A stretch of DNA of 53,152 nt from a virus (IMGVR_UViG_3300029118_000008), one strand, 5' to 3'; counted from the stretch's first letter, positions 3,497 to 53,152 are shown. The notes: generated by a model not told the origin, from the letters alone. Translations and numbers: made by a program.

Positions 3497-3910
3497 TCAC
3501 GGTTCGCCCTTTTCAGCATCCACCTTGTCCGCCATGCGCTTTAAGCTATCGCGTTCCCTGCGCTCCTGCCGCATCCGACGTTCCGCCTTCGCGGTGAGGT
3601 ACTCAACGTAGTTCATCGCTTCACGCACCACGTCATCCGGCGCGCCCATCAGCTTGGCGATAATCGCCTCGCAGGTTGCGTCGAGAATCGGGCGGTCAGA
3701 CGTTCCTTGCGGGTTGTCGGACAGTCCGCAAAGGTAGTCGGTTGTCACGCCGAGCGCTTCGGCGAACTTCACGATGCTGGTAATCTCCGGCGTGATGATT
3801 CCACGCTCATAGCACGAATACGTCGCTTGCGACACTCCAACGATGCTTGCCATTTCGGCTTGCGTCTTTTTTTTTGCCTTTCTCGCTTCCTTGAGCCTAT
3901 CTCCAAGCAT
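3497..3910 (-). CDS. CI-like XRE-family HTH repressor
   Basis: N-terminal LKEARKAKKKTQAEMASIVGVSQATYSCYERG HTH. C-terminal DDVVREAMNYVEYL tail shared with two paralogues. Divergent from a Cro-like gene. Confidence 0.8.
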   Translation of the reverse strand: MLGDRLKEARKAKKKTQAEMASIVGVSQATYSCYERGIITPEITSIVKFAEALGVTTDYLCGLSDNPQGTSDRPILDATCEAIIAKLMGAPDDVVREAMNYVEYLTAKAERRMRQERRERDSLKRMADKVDAEKGEP

Positions 3911-3943: not shown

Positions 3944-3972
3944 TTGACATATAAAATCGAGTGTGCTATTAT
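3944..3972 (+). promoter_or_regulatory. Early rightward promoter (TTGACA-N17-TATTAT) with the adjacent palindrome TTATTAgcattgaTAATAA
   Basis: Lies in the 92-nt divergent intergenic region between the repressor and the Cro-like gene. Confidence 0.55.
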
Positions 3973-4936: not shown

Positions 4937-4965
4937 TTGACATATATGCCAAATTGACATATAAT
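4937..4965 (+). promoter_or_regulatory. Perfect consensus promoter containing the direct repeat TTGACATATA x2
   Basis: TTGACA at 4937-4942, N17, TATAAT at 4960-4965. A second TTGACATATA starts at 4954. Confidence 0.55.
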
Positions 4966-7918: not shown

Positions 7919-7947
7919 TTGACATCAACGTAAAGTTGATGTATAAT
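7919..7947 (+). promoter_or_regulatory. Perfect consensus promoter with the palindrome CATCAAC-N5-GTTGATG in the spacer
   Basis: TTGACA at 7919-7924, N17, TATAAT at 7942-7947. The inverted repeat spans 7923-7941. Confidence 0.6.
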
Positions 7948-19509: not shown

Positions 19510-20048
19510 AAAAGTACGAACTGACAGGCGAAACAAAAGAAATCGGCGGAAAGATTCTGCATCGCATCCGTGCGCTGATTGATATTCCGGAGCACGACGT
19601 GAAGGCTGGTGACTTGGGCGGCTGGATTGAGGCGGAGAAAAATCTGTCGCAAAACGGCGCAGCGTGGGTAACTGGCGAGGCGTTGGTGATGGGTTCGGCG
19701 CGCGTGATGGATTCGGCGTGGGTGATGGGTTCGGCGCGCGTGATGGGTTCGGCGCGCGTGATGGATTCGGCGCGCGTGATGGATTCGGCGTGCGTGATGG
19801 GTTCGGCGCGCGTGATGAAGTCGTCTGACTGCATCACCATCGGAGCAATCGGAAGCCGTGACGGCACAACCACTTTTTACCGTTGCGAAGATGAGAAAAT
19901 ATACGTTTCCTGCGGATGCTTCAGCGGCTCGATTGACGACTTTGCCGCAAAAGTCAAGGCAGTCCACGCCGGGACGAAGCACGAAAGGACGTATCTGCTG
20001 GCAATCGAACTGGCGAAGGCGCAGCTTGGGACGACGGAGGAGGAGTGA
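19506..20048 (+). CDS. Hexapeptide-repeat (left-handed beta-helix / bactofilin-like) phage protein
   Basis: MKKYELTGETKEIGGKILHRIRAL..., then eight (G/D)SA(R/W/C)VM hexapeptides. Confidence 0.6.
   Translation: MKKYELTGETKEIGGKILHRIRALIDIPEHDVKAGDLGGWIEAEKNLSQNGAAWVTGEALVMGSARVMDSAWVMGSARVMGSARVMDSARVMDSACVMGSARVMKSSDCITIGAIGSRDGTTTFYRCEDEKIYVSCGCFSGSIDDFAAKVKAVHAGTKHERTYLLAIELAKAQLGTTEEE
19686..19817 (+). repeat. In-frame 18-nt tandem repeat (7 full units plus a partial one)
   Basis: gtgatgg(g/a)ttcggcg(c/t)g(c/g) units begin at 19686, 19704, 19722, 19740, 19758, 19776 and 19794. Confidence 0.9.
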
Positions 20049-21194: not shown

Positions 21195-21590
21195 ATGGTT
21201 GACTTAAAGCGGATGCGGTATCTCATCAGGCGGTATCCTATGGCTTGCTTGCGAGCGGAGCAGGCGCGAATCCGGGCGCAGAAGCTGACGCGGACAATAA
21301 GCGACGCGCCGCGCGGGGGCGGGAGCATGAACAGCACGGAGGAAGGGCTGCTGTATCGCGTCGAGGCGCTTGAGCGCAAGAAAGCAATCTGGGACGAGTT
21401 GTGCAAGATGCGCGAAGAGCTTGCGCCGCTGGTGGATGCGCTGGAAAGTCCGTTGGAAGTGCAGTGCATGAGGATGCGATATCTGGAGGGAAGGAGTGTC
21501 CGGGAAATCAGCTACAATCTGGCGTATTCCGAGCAGCACGTCTTCCGCGTAATTGGTAACGCAGAGCGGGAAATCCAGAGCGCGGAATAA
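21195..21590 (+). CDS. Sigma-70 region-4-like late transcription regulator (ArpU/RinA-type)
   Basis: C-terminal RMRYLEGRSVREISYNLAYSEQHVFRVIGNAEREI resembles a sigma region-4 HTH. It is the last gene of the early/middle block. Confidence 0.55.
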   Translation: MVDLKRMRYLIRRYPMACLRAEQARIRAQKLTRTISDAPRGGGSMNSTEEGLLYRVEALERKKAIWDELCKMREELAPLVDALESPLEVQCMRMRYLEGRSVREISYNLAYSEQHVFRVIGNAEREIQSAE

Positions 21591-21595
21591 GGCGG

Positions 21596-21625
21596 TCGCG
21601 CATCGAAAGGTGCGCGATTTTCTTT
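21596..21625 (+). terminator. Rho-independent terminator
   Basis: TCGCGCA-tcgaaagg-TGCGCGA followed by TTTTCTTT. Confidence 0.7.
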
Positions 21626-21739
21626 GCAAAAATCGCAAAAAAATGTGATTTGCCCCTTGACATATACGGTAGTATATGCTATAATAAATAGTGTCAAGGG
21701 GCGGTAAAAAAGAACCCCGGACAGAAAGAGGTAAGAAAA
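21623..21739 (+). promoter_or_regulatory. Cassette copy 1: A-tract upstream element + perfect promoter + conserved 5' leader hairpin + SD
   Basis: tttgcaaaaatcgcaaaaaaatgtgatttgcc. TTGACA at 21657-62, N17 (containing CATATAC-N4-GTATATG), TATAAT at 21680-85. Leader atagtgtcaaggggcggtaaaaaagaaccccggacagaaagaggtaag. Confidence 0.7.
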
Positions 21740-22051
21740 ATGGAAAAAACTCGTAAGTTGGACGTAGAAAGTCAGTACGACCATTTCGTTGTGGAAATCG
21801 AAGTCGTTGACGGAGTTTGCGATGGCTATCGCAGTTTTATCGCCGCTTGTGACGGCGCTTATTACGACGGAAGTTCCTATAAATACGACGGAAGTTCCTA
21901 TAAAGAAGCAAAAGCGATGTATGATAAACTCGCCAAATACGAAGACGGCATACATGGTGCCGTTATTTTGATAGCGCACAACATCGAGTGCGATGATTGG
22001 GATACGCTGGAAACAAACGAAATCAATGATGTTTGTCAGGACGAAGAATAA
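21740..22051 (+). CDS. Small acidic orphan protein with an internal YDGSSYK duplication
   Basis: 103 aa, D/E-rich, ending ...CDDWDTLETNEINDVCQDEE. First gene behind cassette copy 1. Confidence 0.6.
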   Translation: MEKTRKLDVESQYDHFVVEIEVVDGVCDGYRSFIAACDGAYYDGSSYKYDGSSYKEAKAMYDKLAKYEDGIHGAVILIAHNIECDDWDTLETNEINDVCQDEE

Positions 22052-22140
22052 CCATGCACCCGCCCGGAGGTACGAGGGCAAAAGGAGGAAATGCGCAATG
22101 CTTTGCAACCAGAAGGATTTTGTAAACCTGCGTAGACTAT

Positions 22141-22223
22141 TTGACATATACGGCAGTATATGCTATAATAATAGTGTCAGAAGGGCGGTACAAAAAAAGC
22201 CCCCGACAGAAAGAGGTAAGACA
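22141..22223 (+). promoter_or_regulatory. Cassette copy 2: perfect promoter + conserved leader
   Basis: TTGACA at 22141-46, N17 (CATATACGGCAGTATATG), TATAAT at 22164-69. Leader aatagtgtcagaagggcggtacaaaaaaagcccccgacagaaagaggtaag. Confidence 0.7.
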
Positions 22224-22649
22224 ATGACTGATAAAGCAAAAAGCGCGGCGCTGTTTGAACAGCACCGCCAAATGACCAAGGCGTGGGAAGCGCAAATGGA
22301 CGCACTCGCCAAAGAAGAAAGCATCACCGACGAGGAATACGAACAGAAGCTCATGGAGCTTTACAATCAACACAAAGAAAAAGCGGATGCGGTTTGGCTG
22401 AAAGCGTTTGCACTGCGATTTCCGAAGCGCAAGGGCTGGTTCGCGGACGTTTTCGCGCCTTCGTTCGGGATTTGCGAAAACAAGAAACTTTCGCCGAAGC
22501 AAACACAAGTGTTCATCGACTACTGCATCAGTGATGCGGATACATGGCGGAATGGCAATACGTACTGCCGGTTTGGAGACAAGCTGGTAACGCTCACTCG
22601 CCCGCGTTACGCAAATGGATGCGGGTACGTTACAATAAGGCAACTGTAA
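22224..22649 (+). CDS. Orphan protein (141 aa)
   Basis: ATG at 22224 lies 6 nt after the conserved AGAGGTAAG. The longer ORF-track reading (from 21993) would run through the promoter. Confidence 0.6.
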   Translation: MTDKAKSAALFEQHRQMTKAWEAQMDALAKEESITDEEYEQKLMELYNQHKEKADAVWLKAFALRFPKRKGWFADVFAPSFGICENKKLSPKQTQVFIDYCISDADTWRNGNTYCRFGDKLVTLTRPRYANGCGYVTIRQL

Positions 22650-22841
22650 ATGAATGGAAGGGAAAACACAGTGATGCTGACGCTGACGAAGGAAGAATAC
22701 AGAGAGCTTAAAAAGCATGGTCATCTTGAAAAAAATGGTTTCGTGTACAGCCACATTGCAACGCTGGACGGGAAAATGGTCGCAGTCTGCGAAAGAGCAA
22801 ATGATTTGGACTACATCGTAGAGGTGAAGCGTGAAAAGTAA
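22650..22841 (+). CDS. Small hypothetical protein (63 aa)
   Basis: Starts immediately after the previous stop. Confidence 0.45.
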   Translation: MNGRENTVMLTLTKEEYRELKKHGHLEKNGFVYSHIATLDGKMVAVCERANDLDYIVEVKREK

Positions 22842-22896
22842 CAGCTTGCAAAATCAACCATCATATGCTACAATATCCCCGAAAGGGGTTGTGGCA

Positions 22897-23115
22897 ATGC
22901 GTAAAGAGTATTACCAAGGGGACATTTCCGTCCGCGCGATGAAGAAGTACCGCGAAAAAGAAGGAATCAAGACGGTGCGCTTCGACGTTCGCGCTGGGAG
23001 CAAAGAGGCGCTGGAAGAAGAAGCAAAGCGCCGCGGTATCTCGGTGGCGCAGCTAATCGTTGATTCCGTAAACGCTTATGTCGGGCGTGCGATAATTACC
23101 AACAGAAAACAATAA
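22897..23115 (+). CDS. RHH-like small DNA-binding protein (Aca-like position)
   Basis: KTVRFDVRAGSKEALEEEAKRRGISVAQLIVDSVNAYV fits a strand-helix-helix pattern. It has its own TTGCAA-N17-TACAAT promoter upstream and a terminator follows. Confidence 0.45.
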   Translation: MRKEYYQGDISVRAMKKYREKEGIKTVRFDVRAGSKEALEEEAKRRGISVAQLIVDSVNAYVGRAIITNRKQ

Positions 23116-23123
23116 TAGCATGG

Positions 23124-23150
23124 GGCGCATCCGCTGGGGTGCGCCTTTTT
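23124..23150 (+). terminator. Rho-independent terminator
   Basis: GGCGCA-tccgctgggg-TGCGCC followed by TTTTT. Confidence 0.7.
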
Positions 23151-23164
23151 CGTTGCGCAAAAAG

Positions 23165-23284
23165 TTTGCAAAAATCGCAAAAAAAATGTGATTTGCCTCT
23201 TGACATATACGGCAGTATATGCTATAATAATAGTGTCAGGAGGGCGGTACAAATAAAAGCCCCCGACAGAAAGAGGTAAGAATT
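23165..23284 (+). promoter_or_regulatory. Cassette copy 3: upstream element + perfect promoter + conserved leader
   Basis: tttgcaaaaatcgcaaaaaaaatgtgatttgcc. TTGACA at 23200-05, N17, TATAAT at 23223-28. Leader aatagtgtcaggagggcggtacaaataaaagcccccgacagaaagaggtaag. Confidence 0.7.
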
Positions 23285-23494
23285 ATGAAGTTCGCGAGCA
23301 TCAAGAAGGGCATCCGCATCACCGAGGAAATGAAAAAGAAGCTGGCAGCCAATTGGTTCTGCGAAACGAAAACGTACTGCTACGAGTTGCAGTACGGGGA
23401 CGAAACGATGGATGGCGACTACGAGCGCAGCATCGTTCGCTGGAAGAAAGGCGAAGAGTACAAGCCTTCCGAAGTCGTTGCAACGCTGGCGTGA
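23285..23494 (+). CDS. Small orphan protein (69 aa)
   Basis: First gene behind cassette copy 3. Confidence 0.55.
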   Translation: MKFASIKKGIRITEEMKKKLAANWFCETKTYCYELQYGDETMDGDYERSIVRWKKGEEYKPSEVVATLA

Positions 23495-23516: not shown

Positions 23517-23828
23517 ATGTCAAACGAAGAAATCATCGCCAAGTCCGCCATCAGCGCGGGCATCTTCTCCGAAGAGGAAGCCGCAGCCTACATCATGAAC
23601 GGGTTGCGCCTCCCGATTCACACCTTCGCCGAGTGGAAGAATCACGGGTACATGGTTAAAAAGGGCGAACACGCCGCGCTGGTCGTGAGCATCTGGAAGC
23701 CCAAGACGCGCAAGCAGAAGAAGGACGACGAAAAGAACGTTGACGCAAAGGAAGAAAATAGCGGGTTCTTCATGACGACCGCCTACTTGTTCACCAAGCA
23801 GCAGGTGGAAGCAATCAAGCCCGCATAA
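23517..23828 (+). CDS. ArdC-N-terminal-like (ssDNA-binding, anti-restriction-type) protein
   Basis: PIHTFAEWKNHGYMVKKGEHAALVVSIWK resembles the (T/W)FxQWxxxGxxVxKGEK core of the ArdC N-domain. ATG after AGGAAGGAGGAG. Confidence 0.35.
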   Translation: MSNEEIIAKSAISAGIFSEEEAAAYIMNGLRLPIHTFAEWKNHGYMVKKGEHAALVVSIWKPKTRKQKKDDEKNVDAKEENSGFFMTTAYLFTKQQVEAIKPA

Positions 23829-24169: not shown

Positions 24170-24679
24170 TTGCTTGACTGGAACGGCATCAAAATCGTCG
24201 AAACGGATTGTATGCTGCCGATTGACCGCGTGAAACCATACGCGAGAAACGCAAAGCGGCATCCGCAGGAGCAAATCGACGAAATCAAGGCAAGCATCAA
24301 GCGGTTCGGAATGGACGACCCCATCGGCATCTGGGGCAAGGAAAACCTGATTGTAGAGGGTCACGGGCGGATGGAAGCGTGCAAGCAGCTCGGCATCCCC
24401 ACAGTGCCGTGCATTCGCCTTGACCACCTGACGAAGGAAGAGCGCAAGGCGTACACACTGGCGCACAACAAAACCAACATGGACAGCGGCTGGGACTTTA
24501 CGGCGCTCGACCAAGAGCTGGCGGAAATCGTTGATATTGACATGAGCGAGTTCGGTTTCGGTGCTTCCGTGGGGGGGCAAGAAGTCAACATTGACGAGCT
24601 GTTTGCGGCAAATGGAGAAGAGAAAAAGAAAACCAAAACTATAACATGTCCTCATTGCGGGCAAACTTTCGAGCCATAA
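24170..24679 (+). CDS. ParB/Srx N-terminal-domain protein with a C-terminal zinc ribbon (DpdB-like position)
   Basis: LPIDRVKPYARNAKRHPQEQIDEIKASIKRFGMDDPI...IVEGHGRMEACKQLG is a ParBc-type pattern. C-terminal ITCPHCGQ. TTG at 24170 after GAGGAGGG. Confidence 0.65.
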   Translation: MLDWNGIKIVETDCMLPIDRVKPYARNAKRHPQEQIDEIKASIKRFGMDDPIGIWGKENLIVEGHGRMEACKQLGIPTVPCIRLDHLTKEERKAYTLAHNKTNMDSGWDFTALDQELAEIVDIDMSEFGFGASVGGQEVNIDELFAANGEEKKKTKTITCPHCGQTFEP

Positions 24680-25518: not shown

Positions 25519-25751
25519 ATTATGAAATCGTCGGAATCATAGCCACCATTGTGGTTTTGCTTTCCTTCACAAAGACAAAATGTGAAAGAATCAGAATCGT
25601 AAATATGGTTGGTGCGGCAATATATTGCCTGTATGGGCATCTAATCAAGTCACCAAGCACGATAATCCTGAACGGTGCATTGATAGCTATACATACATTT
25701 TTTCTCGTTAAGAAAGTGAGGGAACCACATGAAAAACCACAAGACTTCTGA
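25515..25751 (+). CDS. Small 3-TM membrane protein (SemiSWEET/YgjV-like topology)
   Basis: Three hydrophobic helices in 78 aa. GTG at 25515 lies 7 nt after GGAGG and overlaps the dpdA stop (GTGA). Confidence 0.45.
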   Translation: MNYEIVGIIATIVVLLSFTKTKCERIRIVNMVGAAIYCLYGHLIKSPSTIILNGALIAIHTFFLVKKVREPHEKPQDF

Positions 25752-26373
25752 ACTCCAAACGGTTCTTACCGTTACTTTTGTTGCTTGTTTCTTGATTGCA
25801 AACATTCTTGCAGGGAAACAGTTCCAATTGCCATTCGGCATCACGATGACGGGTGCAGTAATAATCTTTCCGATGACGTATATTCTTTCGGATATATTTT
25901 CAGAGGTGTACGGTTATCGGTGGAGCAGATTAACGTGTTACATGGCATTCGGGGCAAATATCCTGATGGCTATTGTATTTGCCATTGCTATCGCGCTTCC
26001 TGCTGCGCCATTCTGGATGAACCAAGAAGGATTTTCCGCGACGTTAGGCAACGCGCCGCGAATCCTGCTTGCGTCGCTGGCGGGATATGTCGTCGGTGAT
26101 TACGCAAACGATATTGTGTTCCAGATAATGAAAAAAAAGCACGAAAACACAATTAAGGGGTTCGGCAGCAGGGCAATTCTTTCAAGCGTTATCGGTGAAC
26201 TCGCAGATAGCACAATTTTCATCCCGATTGCGTTTGCCGGAGAAATGCCTATCGAATCAATGCTTATCATGGGTGCAACACAGGTTATTCTAAAAGTCGC
26301 CTATGAAATCATCATTCTACCACTGACAAATTTTGTTGTCAAGAGGGTATCCGTGCATGAAGCAAGAGCCTGA
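25729..26373 (+). CDS. yhhQ: YhhQ/VUT-family queuosine-precursor (preQ0/preQ1) transporter
   Basis: Polytopic membrane protein. IANILAGKQF...GAVIIFPMTYILSDIFSEVYGYRWSR and ...SSVIGELADSTIFIPIAF match the DUF165/YhhQ family pattern. Confidence 0.7.
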   Translation: MKNHKTSELQTVLTVTFVACFLIANILAGKQFQLPFGITMTGAVIIFPMTYILSDIFSEVYGYRWSRLTCYMAFGANILMAIVFAIAIALPAAPFWMNQEGFSATLGNAPRILLASLAGYVVGDYANDIVFQIMKKKHENTIKGFGSRAILSSVIGELADSTIFIPIAFAGEMPIESMLIMGATQVILKVAYEIIILPLTNFVVKRVSVHEARA

Positions 26374-48148: not shown

Positions 48149-48967
48149 CTATTTTTTGTTTATTTTTAATACCTCGTCTATTGCCGCACGACTTTCGTCA
48201 GAAACCTTCTTCCCATTTTCGTAATTTCGTATTGTTCTTTCGGATAAATGCACGATTTCCGATAGCCGTGCAACGGTAAAGCCCGCTGCAATTCGCGCCT
48301 TGCTTGCTTCTGTTTTCTCTTTTCGATACTTTCTCGGCTTTTCAAGCGAACCGTGTTGCTTCTTTGCTGGCAGATTAGAGGCTTTAAGCGCCTTTGCATC
48401 CGCGCAAGCATCGGAACAATATACTCTGTGCGCTTTATTGGGCGTAAATATCTTTCCGCAAGTTGGGCATAAACGAACGCGTATTTCCGCCATCTTCTTT
48501 TGCGTCTCACCACGCGATTCTTTCCGCCTCTGATTTGTCTTCTCAGCGTTTTTTTTATAGTAATCCAGCGCGCGCTTGCGCGTTTGCTCTGCCGCGCAAT
48601 CTGGACACATTACTTGCTTTCCACTGTTTATAATATACGGTTTTCCGCAAATCTCGCAGTAGGCAGTTCCGCCGATTACACGACTTTTCCCATTTTTCTT
48701 TCGTTCTTCATACTCTTTTTTCCTTTTTTTCTTCGCCGCCACGTTGCAAGTCGGACAACGCTTTGAGCGCGGATAACCCATGTATTTTGCGCCGCAATCC
48801 TCGCAGACCTTCTCCTTTATTGTTTCGTGTATATTAAAATGCCCTTTTCCTAATAAGGCATTTGCTTCTTTTGATTCCTTCTTTTTCATCTCAATAGCGC
48901 ATTGCGGGCAGCAGAAGTACTCCTGCTGCCCGGATAATGGTTTCCCACAGTTTTCGCAAAGCCTCAC
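48149..48967 (-). CDS. Multi-zinc-ribbon protein with a C-terminal XRE-type HTH
   Basis: At least five CxxC...CxxC pairs (CENCGK..CCPQC, CEDCGA..CPTC, CEICGK..CPDC, CPTCGK..CSDAC), then FTVARLSEIVHLSERTIRNYENG. Confidence 0.6.
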   Translation of the reverse strand: MRLCENCGKPLSGQQEYFCCPQCAIEMKKKESKEANALLGKGHFNIHETIKEKVCEDCGAKYMGYPRSKRCPTCNVAAKKKRKKEYEERKKNGKSRVIGGTAYCEICGKPYIINSGKQVMCPDCAAEQTRKRALDYYKKNAEKTNQRRKESRGETQKKMAEIRVRLCPTCGKIFTPNKAHRVYCSDACADAKALKASNLPAKKQHGSLEKPRKYRKEKTEASKARIAAGFTVARLSEIVHLSERTIRNYENGKKVSDESRAAIDEVLKINKK

Positions 48968-49263
48968 TCTTTAAGCCCCCACATCTCCAGCGTATCGTCG
49001 ATATACTCGGTGTCGCTTTCGTTGCATTCCTTCCAAGGGGTTCTGGGGTCGCCGATAATCGCTTCGATTTTAGCGATTGTCTCTTCTGCCCATTTGCTAC
49101 CATCCTCTTCAAGGTCATTCAGCGCGACAGGATTCCCTTCCGTCGTGAGAATCCACTCACCATAGACGGGTTCGACACCCACATACAGCGTGTAGGTGAG
49201 ACCTTCTTCAGAGCCACAGAACTCGTAGATTTCGGTGTTCTCGTTAACAATAACCTTCTTCAT
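48964..49263 (-). CDS. Small acidic orphan protein (99 aa)
   Basis: ATG at 49263 behind cassette copy 4. By my count, 24 D/E against 7 K/R. Confidence 0.6.
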   Translation of the reverse strand: MKKVIVNENTEIYEFCGSEEGLTYTLYVGVEPVYGEWILTTEGNPVALNDLEEDGSKWAEETIAKIEAIIGDPRTPWKECNESDTEYIDDTLEMWGLKE

Positions 49264-49392: not shown

Positions 49393-49554
49393 CTATTCCT
49401 TCCGCACTCTTTCCGCCAGCCACTCCGAGATTGCAAGCCGAATGACAGCCGAATCGTTCAGGCTTAACTTTTTTGCTACGTCCTTAATCTGCGCATTCTG
49501 CTCTTTCGTCAGAATTACGCACTTTGCAACCTTGTTACCGTTTTCACTAATCAT
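49393..49554 (-). CDS. RHH (CopG/Arc-like) protein, 53 aa (not in the ORF track)
   Basis: My translation: MISENGNKVAKCVILTKEQNAQIKDVAKKLSLNDSAVIRLAISEWLAERVRKE. ATG lies 8 nt after GGAGGAG. Confidence 0.6.
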   Translation of the reverse strand: MISENGNKVAKCVILTKEQNAQIKDVAKKLSLNDSAVIRLAISEWLAERVRKE

Positions 49555-49561
49555 CTTCTTG

Positions 49562-49993
49562 TTACTCCTCCTTTCTGGGGCTGCCGTAAATCGGCTTACA
49601 CCAATTGCCCATGCTTCCGACCACCACCTGCGGCAAGTAACCGCCTGTGGTGCGGTCGTAGTGCATCAGCGTCAGCTCAATGCCGCGATACACGCAGCCA
49701 CGGATAACCGCCGCCACGCAAGCGGTCAGTCCCGTGACGTAGACGACCAGCGGGTGATTGCCCGTTGTCACCTCGATGTCCGCGTACTCGTTGTCGTTGA
49801 ATCGAGTACCATAATTGGACAAATGTGTCCCCACACGATTGTCAAGGAACGCGTCGACCGTCCGCGACATAGCGCGGAAGTCCGTGGGGTCTACCTCCAT
49901 TTGGAAGATAAACTCGTCCACGGGCATGTCGTGCCGCCCAGCACACAGACCGACGACGACGGCATTGGAAGGAATTTGAAAAGTAAAGTCCAT
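49562..49993 (-). CDS. Orphan alpha/beta-looking protein (143 aa)
   Basis: ATG at 49993 after AGAGGA. VVVGLCAGRHDMP...LVVYVTGLTACVAAVIRG...HYDRTTGGY. No family recognised. Confidence 0.55.
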   Translation of the reverse strand: MDFTFQIPSNAVVVGLCAGRHDMPVDEFIFQMEVDPTDFRAMSRTVDAFLDNRVGTHLSNYGTRFNDNEYADIEVTTGNHPLVVYVTGLTACVAAVIRGCVYRGIELTLMHYDRTTGGYLPQVVVGSMGNWCKPIYGSPRKEE

Positions 49994-50119: not shown

Positions 50120-50497
50120 TCAAAGCTCTGCAAGCCAGCGGGTTGCACCGAAGCCGAAGTCACGTTCCAGCTCTTCACGCAGGCAGTACTGCTCTGCGTC
50201 CTCATCTGCCTCCAACCACTCCGTGTCATCCAGCAGTTCCGCTGGAACATTGCGGTCGTCGGTTAGGTACTGCTCCAGCCACATTTCTTGCCCCAGAATA
50301 GCCTCCTTCATGCCACTGTCGGGCTCCAGCATTTCATCCCAACTATCGAAGAATAAGGGGTCGCCGTTCGTTTCGACACACACGCTTCCCGTCGCCGTGT
50401 CGAGGAGGATGTGTCCTCCTTCTTCCCAATTCCCATCGTAGTCCTCGTAGTGGTACGCAGTCACGCGCACCCGCTGCTTCAAAATCGTCTTTTCCAT
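50120..50497 (-). CDS. Strongly acidic orphan protein (125 aa; DNA-mimic-like composition)
   Basis: By my count, 33 D/E against 9 K/R. First gene behind cassette copy 6. Confidence 0.6.
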   Translation of the reverse strand: MEKTILKQRVRVTAYHYEDYDGNWEEGGHILLDTATGSVCVETNGDPLFFDSWDEMLEPDSGMKEAILGQEMWLEQYLTDDRNVPAELLDDTEWLEADEDAEQYCLREELERDFGFGATRWLAEL

Positions 50498-52636: not shown

Positions 52637-53062
52637 ATGGCTGAATATACTGCGGCGGCGGCTCAAACCGTCGCCAATGGCAACAACGTCCTTTTTACTG
52701 CAACGCCCGTCTGCGCAACGCGCTGCATCGTCCATCGTGAGGGGTCTGGCATCGTGACACTGCGAGGCATCACCAACGGACAGTGCCGCGCACGTTTCCG
52801 CGTCAATTTTGGCGGCAATATCGCCATTCCGACGGGCGGCACTGCCGGAGCTATCTCTGTCGCGCTTGCAATCGCGGGTGAGGTGCTTCCGGCTTCTACC
52901 GCCATCGTCACCCCTGCGGCGGCGGCACAATACCAGAACGTCAGCGTCGACACCTTTGTTGACGTTCCGGCGGGGTGCTGCACGACCATCAGCGTCAAAA
53001 ATACCGCTGGCGTGGATATTGACGTGCAGAATGCCAACCTGATTGTCACGCGCGTTGCGTGA
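52637..53062 (+). CDS. TNF/C1q-like all-beta protein resembling exosporium BclA-C-terminal / BxpB (ExsF)-type domains
   Basis: IVTLRGI...ARFRVNFGGNIAIPTGGTAGAISVALAI...TTISVKNTAGVDIDVQNANLIVTRVA. There are no collagen repeats. Confidence 0.35.
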   Translation: MAEYTAAAAQTVANGNNVLFTATPVCATRCIVHREGSGIVTLRGITNGQCRARFRVNFGGNIAIPTGGTAGAISVALAIAGEVLPASTAIVTPAAAAQYQNVSVDTFVDVPAGCCTTISVKNTAGVDIDVQNANLIVTRVA

Positions 53063-53152
53063 GGAAAGGAGAAACGCAATGAAGTATCTTCACGAACTTA
53101 AAGAAAAACTCTGCGAAGAGCTGCAAGAGATTGCGGAGAAGCAGGATATGTC

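Follow-up and report, generated by a model that had tools for sequence, protein, structure and literature searches.

Parts of the arrangement described here are known from other phages and from plasmids, and we compared these with a repeated promoter-leader cassette in IMGVR_UViG_3300029118_000008, a viral sequence of 53,152 nucleotides that was analysed over its full length (hereafter the window) and that carries copies of the cassette in two accessory islands, I and II. The promoter-early stem-loops (PeSLs) of T4-type phages have been described by Arbiol et al. (2010, PMC2839356) and Comeau et al. (2014, PMC4122927). Both PeSLs and the cassette are small repeated units made of a consensus sigma-70-type promoter with an AT-rich region upstream and a stem-loop sequence (often between -35 and -10), followed by the Shine-Dalgarno sequence (SD) and start codon of an orphan gene (ORFan), and both are concentrated in variable (hyperplastic) regions, where they mark crossover points and the breakpoints of indels and replacements between relatives. 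The carrier here is, however, a temperate phage of about 53 kb with an integrase-like gene rather than a T4-like myovirus, there are 5-6 copies per genome as against about 50, the spacer palindrome covaries with the allele of a ribbon-helix-helix (RHH)-like protein as would be expected of an operator and not of a terminator, and a separate conserved hairpin leader lies in the part predicted to be transcribed.

On the Bacillus pumilus plasmid p576, several sigma-A promoters are under the control of one autoregulated RHH repressor, Reg576, which represses establishment genes including ardC, and these are expressed in a short burst once the DNA has entered the cell (Val-Calvo et al., 2018, PMC6294495). 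The window similarly has predicted strong sigma-A promoters (17-bp spacer, TGn extended -10) heading clustered small genes, one of them of ArdC type (the ArdC-N-like g48, which follows copy 3 of the cassette), and an RHH-like gene in each island. It differs from p576 in being a phage with two islands of separate predicted operator specificities, in having 18-bp palindromes inside the promoter spacer where p576 has paired direct TTATCCC heptamers mostly upstream of -35, and in that the whole promoter-leader unit is a near-identical repeat used for cargo exchange; repression has been demonstrated for p576, whereas it is predicted here. In the P22 immI region (Arc acting on Pant) and in pMV158 (CopG acting on Pcr), the RHH repressor is made from the promoter that it shuts off (PMC2724298). 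As with Arc, the phage studied here encodes an RHH-like protein of about 53 aa (g86) with a putative operator overlapping the core promoter, but the Arc/Mnt system of P22 has one regulated promoter pair and no repeated cassette, shared leader hairpin or cargo shuffling, and no detectable sequence homology was found beyond weak RHH-level matches. Morons, finally, consist of a gene with its own promoter and terminator inserted between conserved genes, and their promoters are normally unrelated to one another. The cassette-headed units likewise carry orphan cargo, form transcription units of their own and are present in some close relatives and absent from others, but they all share one standardised promoter-leader that would be gated by a repressor.

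We consider it probable that the cassette is a modular unit in which a promoter gated by an RHH repressor is joined to a leader carrying a hairpin and an SD, and that the same unit doubles as a homology patch. What appears to be new is the combination of these known elements as a standardised, putatively RHH-gated PeSL-like cassette in a temperate phage family, with covariation between an RHH residue and the operator class. Gut phage genomes are full of small orphan genes of unknown timing and control, and the cassette provides a standard, easily recognised "socket" for such genes, a sequence handle for finding accessory or anti-defence islands in uncultured Firmicutes phages, and a testable model for burst-type expression of the Arc or Reg576 kind. 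It also offers a natural series of RHH alleles and operator classes, with one strand residue apparently setting specificity, that could be of use for orthogonal repressor-promoter pairs, and it carries over to a temperate phage of another lineage the PeSL idea, formed on lytic T4-like phages of Gram-negative bacteria, that recombination concentrates at regulatory cassettes.

Copies of the cassette and their leader

A preliminary description of the window had placed three copies of the cassette on the + strand (21623-21739, 22141-22223 and 23165-23284), each with a perfect TTGACA-N17-TATAAT promoter whose spacer holds the palindrome CATATAC-N4-GTATATG, and this was borne out in full. Searching the window with the 29-nt promoter TTGACATATACGG(C/T)AGTATATGCTATAAT and allowing at most one mismatch yielded three matches (0.00 expected from 100 shuffles), at 21657, 22141 and 23200, with perfect hexamers at 21657-21685, 22141-22169 and 23200-23228; the palindrome and the leader 16-mer GACAGAAAGAGGTAAG are exact in all three copies, and this full palindrome, class I in the scheme given below, occurs in the window in these three cassettes only. 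The cassette is not a feature of island I alone, as had been proposed: two more full copies and one decayed copy lie on the - strand in island II. The two full copies (4 and 5) have the same hexamers and leader, and differ in the spacer palindrome and in the upstream A-tract element.

In island I, copy 1 has an A-tract upstream element (21623-21654, about -38 to -70, conserved in class I cassettes of relatives) that resembles an UP element and may act as one, a promoter with a TGn extended -10 (21657-21685) around the palindrome CATATAC-GGTA-GTATATG (21661-21678), a predicted leader hairpin (21692-21723, with UGUC/GACA as outer and GGGG/CCCC as inner helix; -10.1 kcal/mol, z -2.08) and the SD AAAGAGG (21725-21731) of the first cargo gene. 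Copy 2 has its promoter at 22141-22169 (palindrome 22145-22162) and its predicted hairpin, of the leader type that we call A, at 22175-22208 (-9.4 kcal/mol, z -1.34), with neither an A-tract element nor a terminator upstream. Copy 3 comprises an A-tract element (23165-23197), the promoter (23200-23228, palindrome 23204-23221) and a type A hairpin (23234-23268, -13.9 kcal/mol, z -2.74). The upstream element had been given as common to copies 1 and 3; both do carry one, but that of copy 3 has one extra A. Similarly, the proposal that each unit is insulated by a terminator holds for hairpins with T-runs at 21594-21619 and 23122-23147 and fails for copy 2. The first of these terminator-like structures (21594-21627 with its T-run; + strand, 11 pairs of which 6 are GC, then TTCTTTG) ends the upstream unit just 5' of copy 1 and is kept upstream of class I cassettes in relatives; the second (23122-23155; + strand, 11 pairs of which 7 are GC) follows gene g46 and precedes copy 3.

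In island II, all on the - strand, copy 4 (49385->49261) starts 44 nt after the stop codon of g86 and comprises A-tracts, a promoter (49349->49321) with a class II palindrome (49346->49329), a hairpin (49314->49280), an SD and an ATG at 49263. Copy 5 (50620->50495) has phased A-tracts, a promoter (50583->50555) with the class II palindrome ACAAAGTATATATCTTGT (50580->50563), a hairpin (50549->50512), an SD and an ATG at 50497. The decayed copy 6 (~50100->49994) keeps the extended -10 and an ATAGTGT motif but neither the -35 nor the 5' half of the hairpin, and has no stable fold (z +1.19).

To collect relatives, we searched IMG/VR with the leader pattern ATAGTGTCA-N20-45-GACAGAAAGAGG, yielding 100 stretches from about 60 contigs, mostly of about 50 kb. 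Three of these loci (L056, L071 and L092) have no promoter and were taken to be chance matches, so that a reading of them as leaders in which the hairpin had been replaced by a different hairpin was dropped. About 148 cassettes in some 60 related viral contigs remained. Every fairly complete genome of the family has one layout, with two cassette islands about 25 kb apart on opposite strands: island I, with 1-3 cassettes, lies 3' of a sigma-region-4/DUF1492-like gene (in the window g42, 21195-21590, upstream of the terminator before copy 1), and island II has 1-3 cassettes on the opposite strand.

Promoter statistics were computed over the 141 cassettes with complete upstream sequence. Both hexamers are perfect in 131 of them, with a spacer of 17 bp, the TGn extended -10 (TG at -15/-14) is present in all 141, and phased A-tracts lie upstream at about -41, -52 and -63. 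Within the window, 14 sigma-A-like promoters were found within two mismatches of the consensus (0.17 expected), and the five perfect ones are the cassettes. The cassette would thus begin with a full-consensus promoter for the host sigma-A/sigma-70, made of the A-tract element, TTGACA, a 17-bp spacer, TGn and TATAAT.

The part that follows would be a 5' untranslated region of about 50 nt specific to the phage family, with a GC-stemmed, A-rich-looped hairpin near the predicted start. The ATAGTGT motif lies 1-2 nt after the -10 hexamer and the hairpin begins 5-6 nt after it, so that, assuming a start 5-9 nt after the hexamer, no more than about 2 nt would separate the hairpin from the 5' end. Folding energies of the five window leaders range from -9.4 to -13.9 kcal/mol (z -1.3 to -2.7). 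In all 80 distinct leaders the same hairpin (outer helix) is the minimum-free-energy fold, and the SD AAAGAGG, located 7-9 nt from the ATG, is unpaired in 76 of the 80. Neither the palindrome nor the leader hairpin is followed by a T-run. The A-rich loop is variable, in contrast to the conserved stems and flanks, and the leader as a whole is far more conserved than its surroundings. The inner helix had been said to vary between copies with pairing kept, which is literally true of the three + strand copies, but across 58 distinct leaders there is almost no compensatory change (87.7% of cells paired; one pair changed on both sides, in two cells). Among individual leaders, three loci (L046, L117 and L137) share a variant with the loop cut to 4 nt and an altered 3' side (UGUCAGGAGGGC-AUGA-GCCAACCGACA) in which the hairpin still forms and a long, different leader takes the place of the SD region, and in one of the two L004 cassettes the SD is weakened (GAAAGGGAAAG), a form shared by about 17 other cassettes.

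A 5' stem-loop together with a strong, exposed polypurine SD has been reviewed as the common determinant of leader-conferred stability (PMC3997798; Hambraeus 2002, Hue 1995). The leader studied here is predicted to have this design, with an unpaired polypurine SD after a stem-loop placed near the predicted 5' end, in common with Firmicutes stabilisers such as those of aprE, ermC and SP82 and the cryIIIA STAB-SD; the likeness is one of design, as the sequences are not similar and the start is a predicted one here. Because it would combine the two elements of that determinant, an mRNA stabiliser or translation enhancer is the most economical reading of the leader and the one that we tentatively adopt: it would most likely protect the 5' end and drive translation of the open reading frame (ORF) that follows. 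Since promoter-RHH modules in other phages (see below) do without the leader, it is best seen as a separate module specific to this phage family.

The same facts leave some room for a leader that serves as an RNA operator for a post-transcriptional regulator shared by both islands, whether a translational repressor, a RegB-like endoribonuclease or a pausing or antitermination factor. One leader is joined to three kinds of operator-promoter and is far better conserved than the DNA around it, with conserved stems and flanks beside a variable loop, and its absence from promoter-RHH modules elsewhere implies a family-specific function added to theirs. On the other hand, no candidate RNA-binding protein was identified, Rfam searches were negative both for the whole window at the gathering score and for 21550-23350 at E<=1, the predicted fold leaves the SD free and so offers no obvious switch, and high conservation may also stem from recombination or gene conversion between copies; we regard an RNA operator as unlikely. 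We give a similarly low rating to a broader proposal in which the leader is a dedicated RNA or DNA element, either an RNA operator by which one phage or host factor would gate the units of both islands on top of the RHH proteins, or the core of an actively mobile cassette system (PeSL-like mini-circles, gene conversion) carrying orphan genes from island to island and from phage to phage, together with the residue-12 switch described in the next section.

Spacer palindromes and ribbon-helix-helix-like proteins

The promoter spacer of the cassettes holds one of three palindrome classes, all at the same position: class I is CATATAC-N4-GTATATG, class II is ACAAGGTATATACCTTGT (with ACAAAGTATATATCTTGT as the window version) and class III is ACAAGTTGCGCAACTTGT. 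Variation within a class concentrates in the centre of the palindrome and in the N of TGn, not in the arms. Island I always has class I and island II has class II or class III, and none of 32 contigs mixes these two. As the 18-bp palindromes fill the space between -35 and -10, each is a candidate for a symmetric operator overlapping the core promoter.

We compared the 93 predicted proteins of the window with those of the related loci. Only g86 (49393-49554, - strand, 53 aa) and its neighbour g87 (49562-49993, - strand, 143 aa, an orphan) differ by operator class: identity of the window g86 to its counterparts is about 93% where the operator is of class II and about 54% where it is of class III, as against about 90-99% in both groups for the other proteins. 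Residue 12 of g86 is Cys in 17 of 17 class II contigs and Asn in 22 of 22 class III contigs (Fisher 2e-11, ignoring relatedness), and residue 2 (Ile/Leu) likewise tracks the class. Cys12 is found on two g86 backbones, and three substitutions (I2L, C12N and A25E) are all that separate one of these from a class III protein. The association of g87 with the class reflects linkage, since several class II genomes lack g87; the g87 allele goes with the g86 backbone, and the gene adjoining g86 varies between genomes. The end of g86 lies 50-80 nt 5' of a cognate cassette in 36 of 40 cases, and in 35 of 40 a second cognate cassette, on the same strand, precedes g86, with no case lacking one where the sequence is present.

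An AlphaFold model of g86 (single sequence, pLDDT 70) has residues 1-16 extended or coiled and helices at 17-29 and 35-51, which is the RHH topology. The best PDB sequence matches are ORF56 of pRN1 (E=0.038) and CopG (0.8), both of them RHH proteins, and RHH_1 and RHH_3 match some alleles at 0.006-0.009; Foldseek with the model returned nothing below E=1, and a protein search with g86 found just 7 near-identical proteins. The evidence for an RHH fold in g86 is consistent though weak. In Arc and CopG, DNA specificity is set by beta-strand residues, Arc Asn11 and CopG Thr6 being base-contacting residues of the strand. If the starts of helix A are matched, residue 12 of g86 presumably occupies the position of these two.

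A generic scan with TTGACAA-N9-CTTGTGnTATAAT proved too loose and returned mostly unrelated promoters without a palindrome, L171 alone being informative. In this unrelated 38-kb contig (228-737, - strand), the perfect 18-bp palindrome ACAAGATATATATCTTGT, with TATATA as its centre, lies inside a TTGACA-N17-TATAAT promoter, followed by a leader without hairpin, a 95-aa ORF and a g86-like protein of 52 aa (MIKADGNKVNVSIIMTKE...) with Ser at position 12. The single strand residue 12 (Cys or Ser versus Asn) may be a natural one-residue switch of RHH operator specificity.

Class I is invariant within the family. The RHH-like gene of island I, g46 (22897-23115, + strand, 72 aa), matches Pfam RHH_1 at E=0.007 and phrog_3887 ("transcriptional regulator") at 5.7e-5, with VapB26 as best PDB match (0.15). 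In 36 of 39 relatives, a class I cassette follows at about 110 nt from g46, and just 16 of the 39 have a cassette upstream of the gene. It also has its own, weaker promoter, TTGCAA-N17-TACAAT (22846-22874, + strand); the cassette, then, does not head every transcription unit of the island, as had been suggested. A promoter-only scan detected the exact class I 29-mer in about 25 unrelated viral contigs (among L103-L136), with short leaders without hairpin. In all 22 of those with enough sequence, a ParG-like RHH protein of 60-63 aa (Pfam ParG 0.014; PDB ParG 0.049) is encoded 0-500 nt after the promoter, and a class I promoter directly before an RHH gene is the arrangement expected of an autoregulated RHH promoter. 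Examples are L120 (6725-6961), L105 and L115, and in L105 and L120 the gene after the ParG-like one resembles an IS30-family transposase.

The spacer palindrome had been put forward as an operator candidate, and the covariation of the RHH allele with the operator class, together with the recurrence of the same promoter before RHH genes in unrelated phages, strengthens that proposal. As residue 12 tracks the class and all 22 unrelated contigs with enough sequence have a ParG-like RHH gene behind the class I promoter, the palindromes are most likely RHH operators that would give self-limiting expression. Taken singly, the class I palindrome is probably an RHH operator, and for g46 as the protein that binds it we see the chances as evenly balanced. 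In the circuit that we propose, the 18-bp palindrome would be the operator of the small RHH repressor encoded in the same island, classes II and III being bound by g86 in island II and class I, tentatively, by g46 in island I. The promoters would fire strongly when phage DNA enters a repressor-free cell, or keep a low set level in the lysogen, and be throttled as the RHH protein accumulates; since the RHH gene either adjoins the promoters that it would control or would itself be read from them, the circuit should limit itself.

Several points weigh against this account. The RHH fold assignments are weak (for g86, ORF56 at 0.038 and CopG at 0.8; for g46, RHH_1 at 0.007, below the Pfam cut-off), and the association of g86 with the operator could partly come from tight physical linkage and shared ancestry of closely related sequences. 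The cognate protein of class I, a class invariant in the family, is not pinned down: the g46 allele of L004 is 62% identical, with the strand QKITIEVQ versus KTVRFDVR, beside an unchanged class I operator, and the ParG-like RHH family has no member in the window or in the family loci. Homology of g46 to the ParG-like proteins was considered and rejected (no HMMER match; hhalign E=0.0023, probability 12.5%). As to the leader, z-scores are modest, covariation is absent, and the invariance of the outer helix is partly built in, as the first search pattern fixed it. The promoter-operator-RHH modules of other phages have short leaders without hairpin, so that the hairpin is not needed for the circuit.

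The invariance of class I within the family and the divergent g46 allele with its unchanged operator would also suit operators that belong to another regulator, such as CI-like or Cro-like immunity proteins, g42 or a host factor, with the RHH genes as passengers; TTGACATATA starts the promoters at 3944 and 4954 too, beside the CI-like gene. The full class I palindrome is nevertheless confined to the three cassettes, and an RHH gene of some family follows these promoters in independent phage lineages, which makes control by another regulator improbable. CI-like and Cro-like proteins were examined as binders of classes II and III and discarded, their allele identities not following the class and showing, if anything, the opposite (n=3-4).

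We hold it very unlikely that these are plain, unregulated "moron" promoters duplicated with their genes, with palindromes that bind nothing and are PeSL-type attenuators or hitch-hikers. T4-type PeSL stem-loops between -35 and -10 have indeed been read as terminators or attenuators and not as operators (PMC2839356), yet the palindromes here lie in the spacer of their own promoter, which is not transcribed, two-fold symmetry is kept in three classes at one position, the classes do not mix within an island, residue 12 tracks the class, and RHH genes stand behind the same promoters in unrelated phages. That the RHH genes are antitoxins of toxin-antitoxin pairs (e.g. g87-g86), the palindromes being autoregulation sites and the repetition secondary, is likewise very unlikely. 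RHH antitoxins such as RelB do repress their own promoters via palindromes (PMC2812701), g46 has the antitoxin VapB26 as its best PDB match (E=0.15) and the allele of g87 goes with the g86 backbone, but none of g87, g88, g85 and g43-g47 has a Pfam, PHROG or PADLOC toxin match, the gene beside g86 varies, and each island has at least two units of variable cargo headed by the same operator-promoter.

Palindromes in promoter spacers are not confined to the cassettes. Four other near-consensus sigma-A promoters were found in the window at 7919-7947 (+), 26314-26342 (-), 3944-3972 (+) and 4937-4965 (+). The spacer holds the palindrome CATCAAC-N5-GTTGATG at 7919 and GACAACAAAATTTGTC at 26314, and the promoters at 3944 and 4954 have CACCTCAAAA...TTGACATATA in common; putative operators within the spacer seem to be a general trait of this genome.

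Cargo genes and recombination

The genes behind the cassettes were searched against Pfam, PHROG and PADLOC, and had no match in any of them except for g48 (ArdcN 6.2e-7; phrog_7245 anti-restriction 4.6e-7), which agrees with the earlier view of the cassette as a shared expression platform for orphan genes. In island I (+ strand), copy 1 is followed by g43 (21740-22051, 103 aa), copy 2 by g44 (22224-22649, 141 aa) and g45 (22650-22841, 63 aa), and copy 3 by g47 (23285-23494, 69 aa) and, as second gene of the unit, the ArdC-N-like, anti-restriction-like g48 (23517-23828, 103 aa), a cargo that would fit a role in entry or establishment. In island II (- strand), g85 (48964-49263, 99 aa) lies behind copy 4 and g88 (50120-50497, 125 aa) behind copy 5. 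Downstream of copy 4, a 272-aa ORF (48149-48967, - strand) has weak double-zinc-ribbon matches and a C-terminal HTH_3-like segment (E about 2-3e-4, below the Pfam cut-offs) and is a possible further regulator of island II.

Gene order in the islands of relatives was reconstructed by single-linkage clustering of ORFs, and these clusters were used for gene order only, as they were polluted by ORFs reading through the cassette. The first position behind a cassette is occupied by 14 protein families, several of which are associated with two or more promoter classes. In island II, the first cassette has an identical upstream flank, yet at least 5 different cargo genes are found after it, homology ending at the SD/ATG. 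With about 120 bp repeated 5-6 times per genome and shared between phages, the cassette would form a portable homology patch for the exchange, duplication and deletion of cargo.

Leaders fall into type A (CAGGAGGGC), which accompanies class I in 58 of 64 cassettes, and type B (CAAGGGG), which accompanies class II/III in 68 of 72. The ten cassettes with a chimeric combination of promoter class and leader type coincide with cargo families that changed island, and imply crossovers on both sides of the hairpin, in the interval from the -10 and in that to the ATG. Copy 1 is such a chimera, as it joins a class I promoter to a type B leader, normally found with class II/III, and to g43, the homologues of which in relatives stand behind class II/III promoters in island II. 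The perfect 11-nt inverted repeat reported to bracket the promoter of copy 1 is real, but it recurs in one of 64 class I cassettes of relatives, the others having mostly 5-6 nt; we rejected it as a functional feature and consider it a by-product of the chimeric make-up of this copy.

Decayed copy 6 is joined, through a GGAC microhomology, to the final codons of a g43-like gene and the AACCATGCACCC element, and the element after the junction (AACCATGCACCCGCCC...) is exactly the sequence found 3' of g43 in island I; to judge from these joined sequences, copy 6 is a deletion scar. Tandem duplication is seen in L004 (IMGVR_UViG_3300045988_058537), where the block of g46 promoter, g46, terminator, class I cassette and cargo is repeated. 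With 14 cargo families, chimeric cassettes and this scar, the suggestion that the cassette serves as a scaffold for recombination stands.

The sequence after g43 is itself a repeated element. It occurs as AACCATGCACCCGCCCGGAGGTACGAGGGCA with an orphaned SD/ATG at 22052-22100 (+ strand) and again in island II upstream of g87, at what appears to be a recombination junction, the two copies matching AACCATGCACCCGCCC(C)GGAGGT(T)ACGAGGGCA at 22052-22085 (+) and 50049->50014 (-). In relatives, it follows the stop codon of intact g43-like genes and precedes various genes. It has no stable fold in the context of the decayed copy and no Rfam match, and may be another recombination junction or a processing site.

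Genome and neighbouring features

The window has an exact 99-nt direct repeat at both ends (1-99 = 53054-53152) and is thus a circularly closed contig of about 53,053 bp, so that islands I and II belong to one complete genome. Its G+C content is 53%, and no tRNA genes were found in it. A blastn search of the island against 50,697 isolate phage records gave 0 matches, hence no described close relative among them, and the leader pattern had 0 matches in 185,579 species-representative genomes, where no prophage was found. A terminase-based scan detected just two short contigs of metagenome-assembled genomes, labelled Subdoligranulum and Alloprevotella; the match to the Subdoligranulum contig is at 78% and gives a weak host hint. 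The large terminase is closest to the terminases of temperate Enterococcus and Lactococcus phages (49% identity). The phage, an uncultured temperate one, probably infects Firmicutes; it has an integrase-like gene (1096-2145, - strand) and a CI-like helix-turn-helix gene (3497-3910, - strand).

Between these two genes, AT-rich repeats of AAATAGCTnAGCTATT at 2723-2841 may be attP arm sites or an origin. Eight tandem 18-nt units (GCGCGCGTGATGGRTTCG-like) lie at 19644-19841 in a + strand ORF and would encode a hexapeptide repeat. Downstream of island I, we detected a ParB_N-like gene (24170-24679, E=3.7e-4) and a gene for a Vut_1/YhhQ-type transporter (25729-26373, E=1.4e-40), an unusual cargo for a phage.

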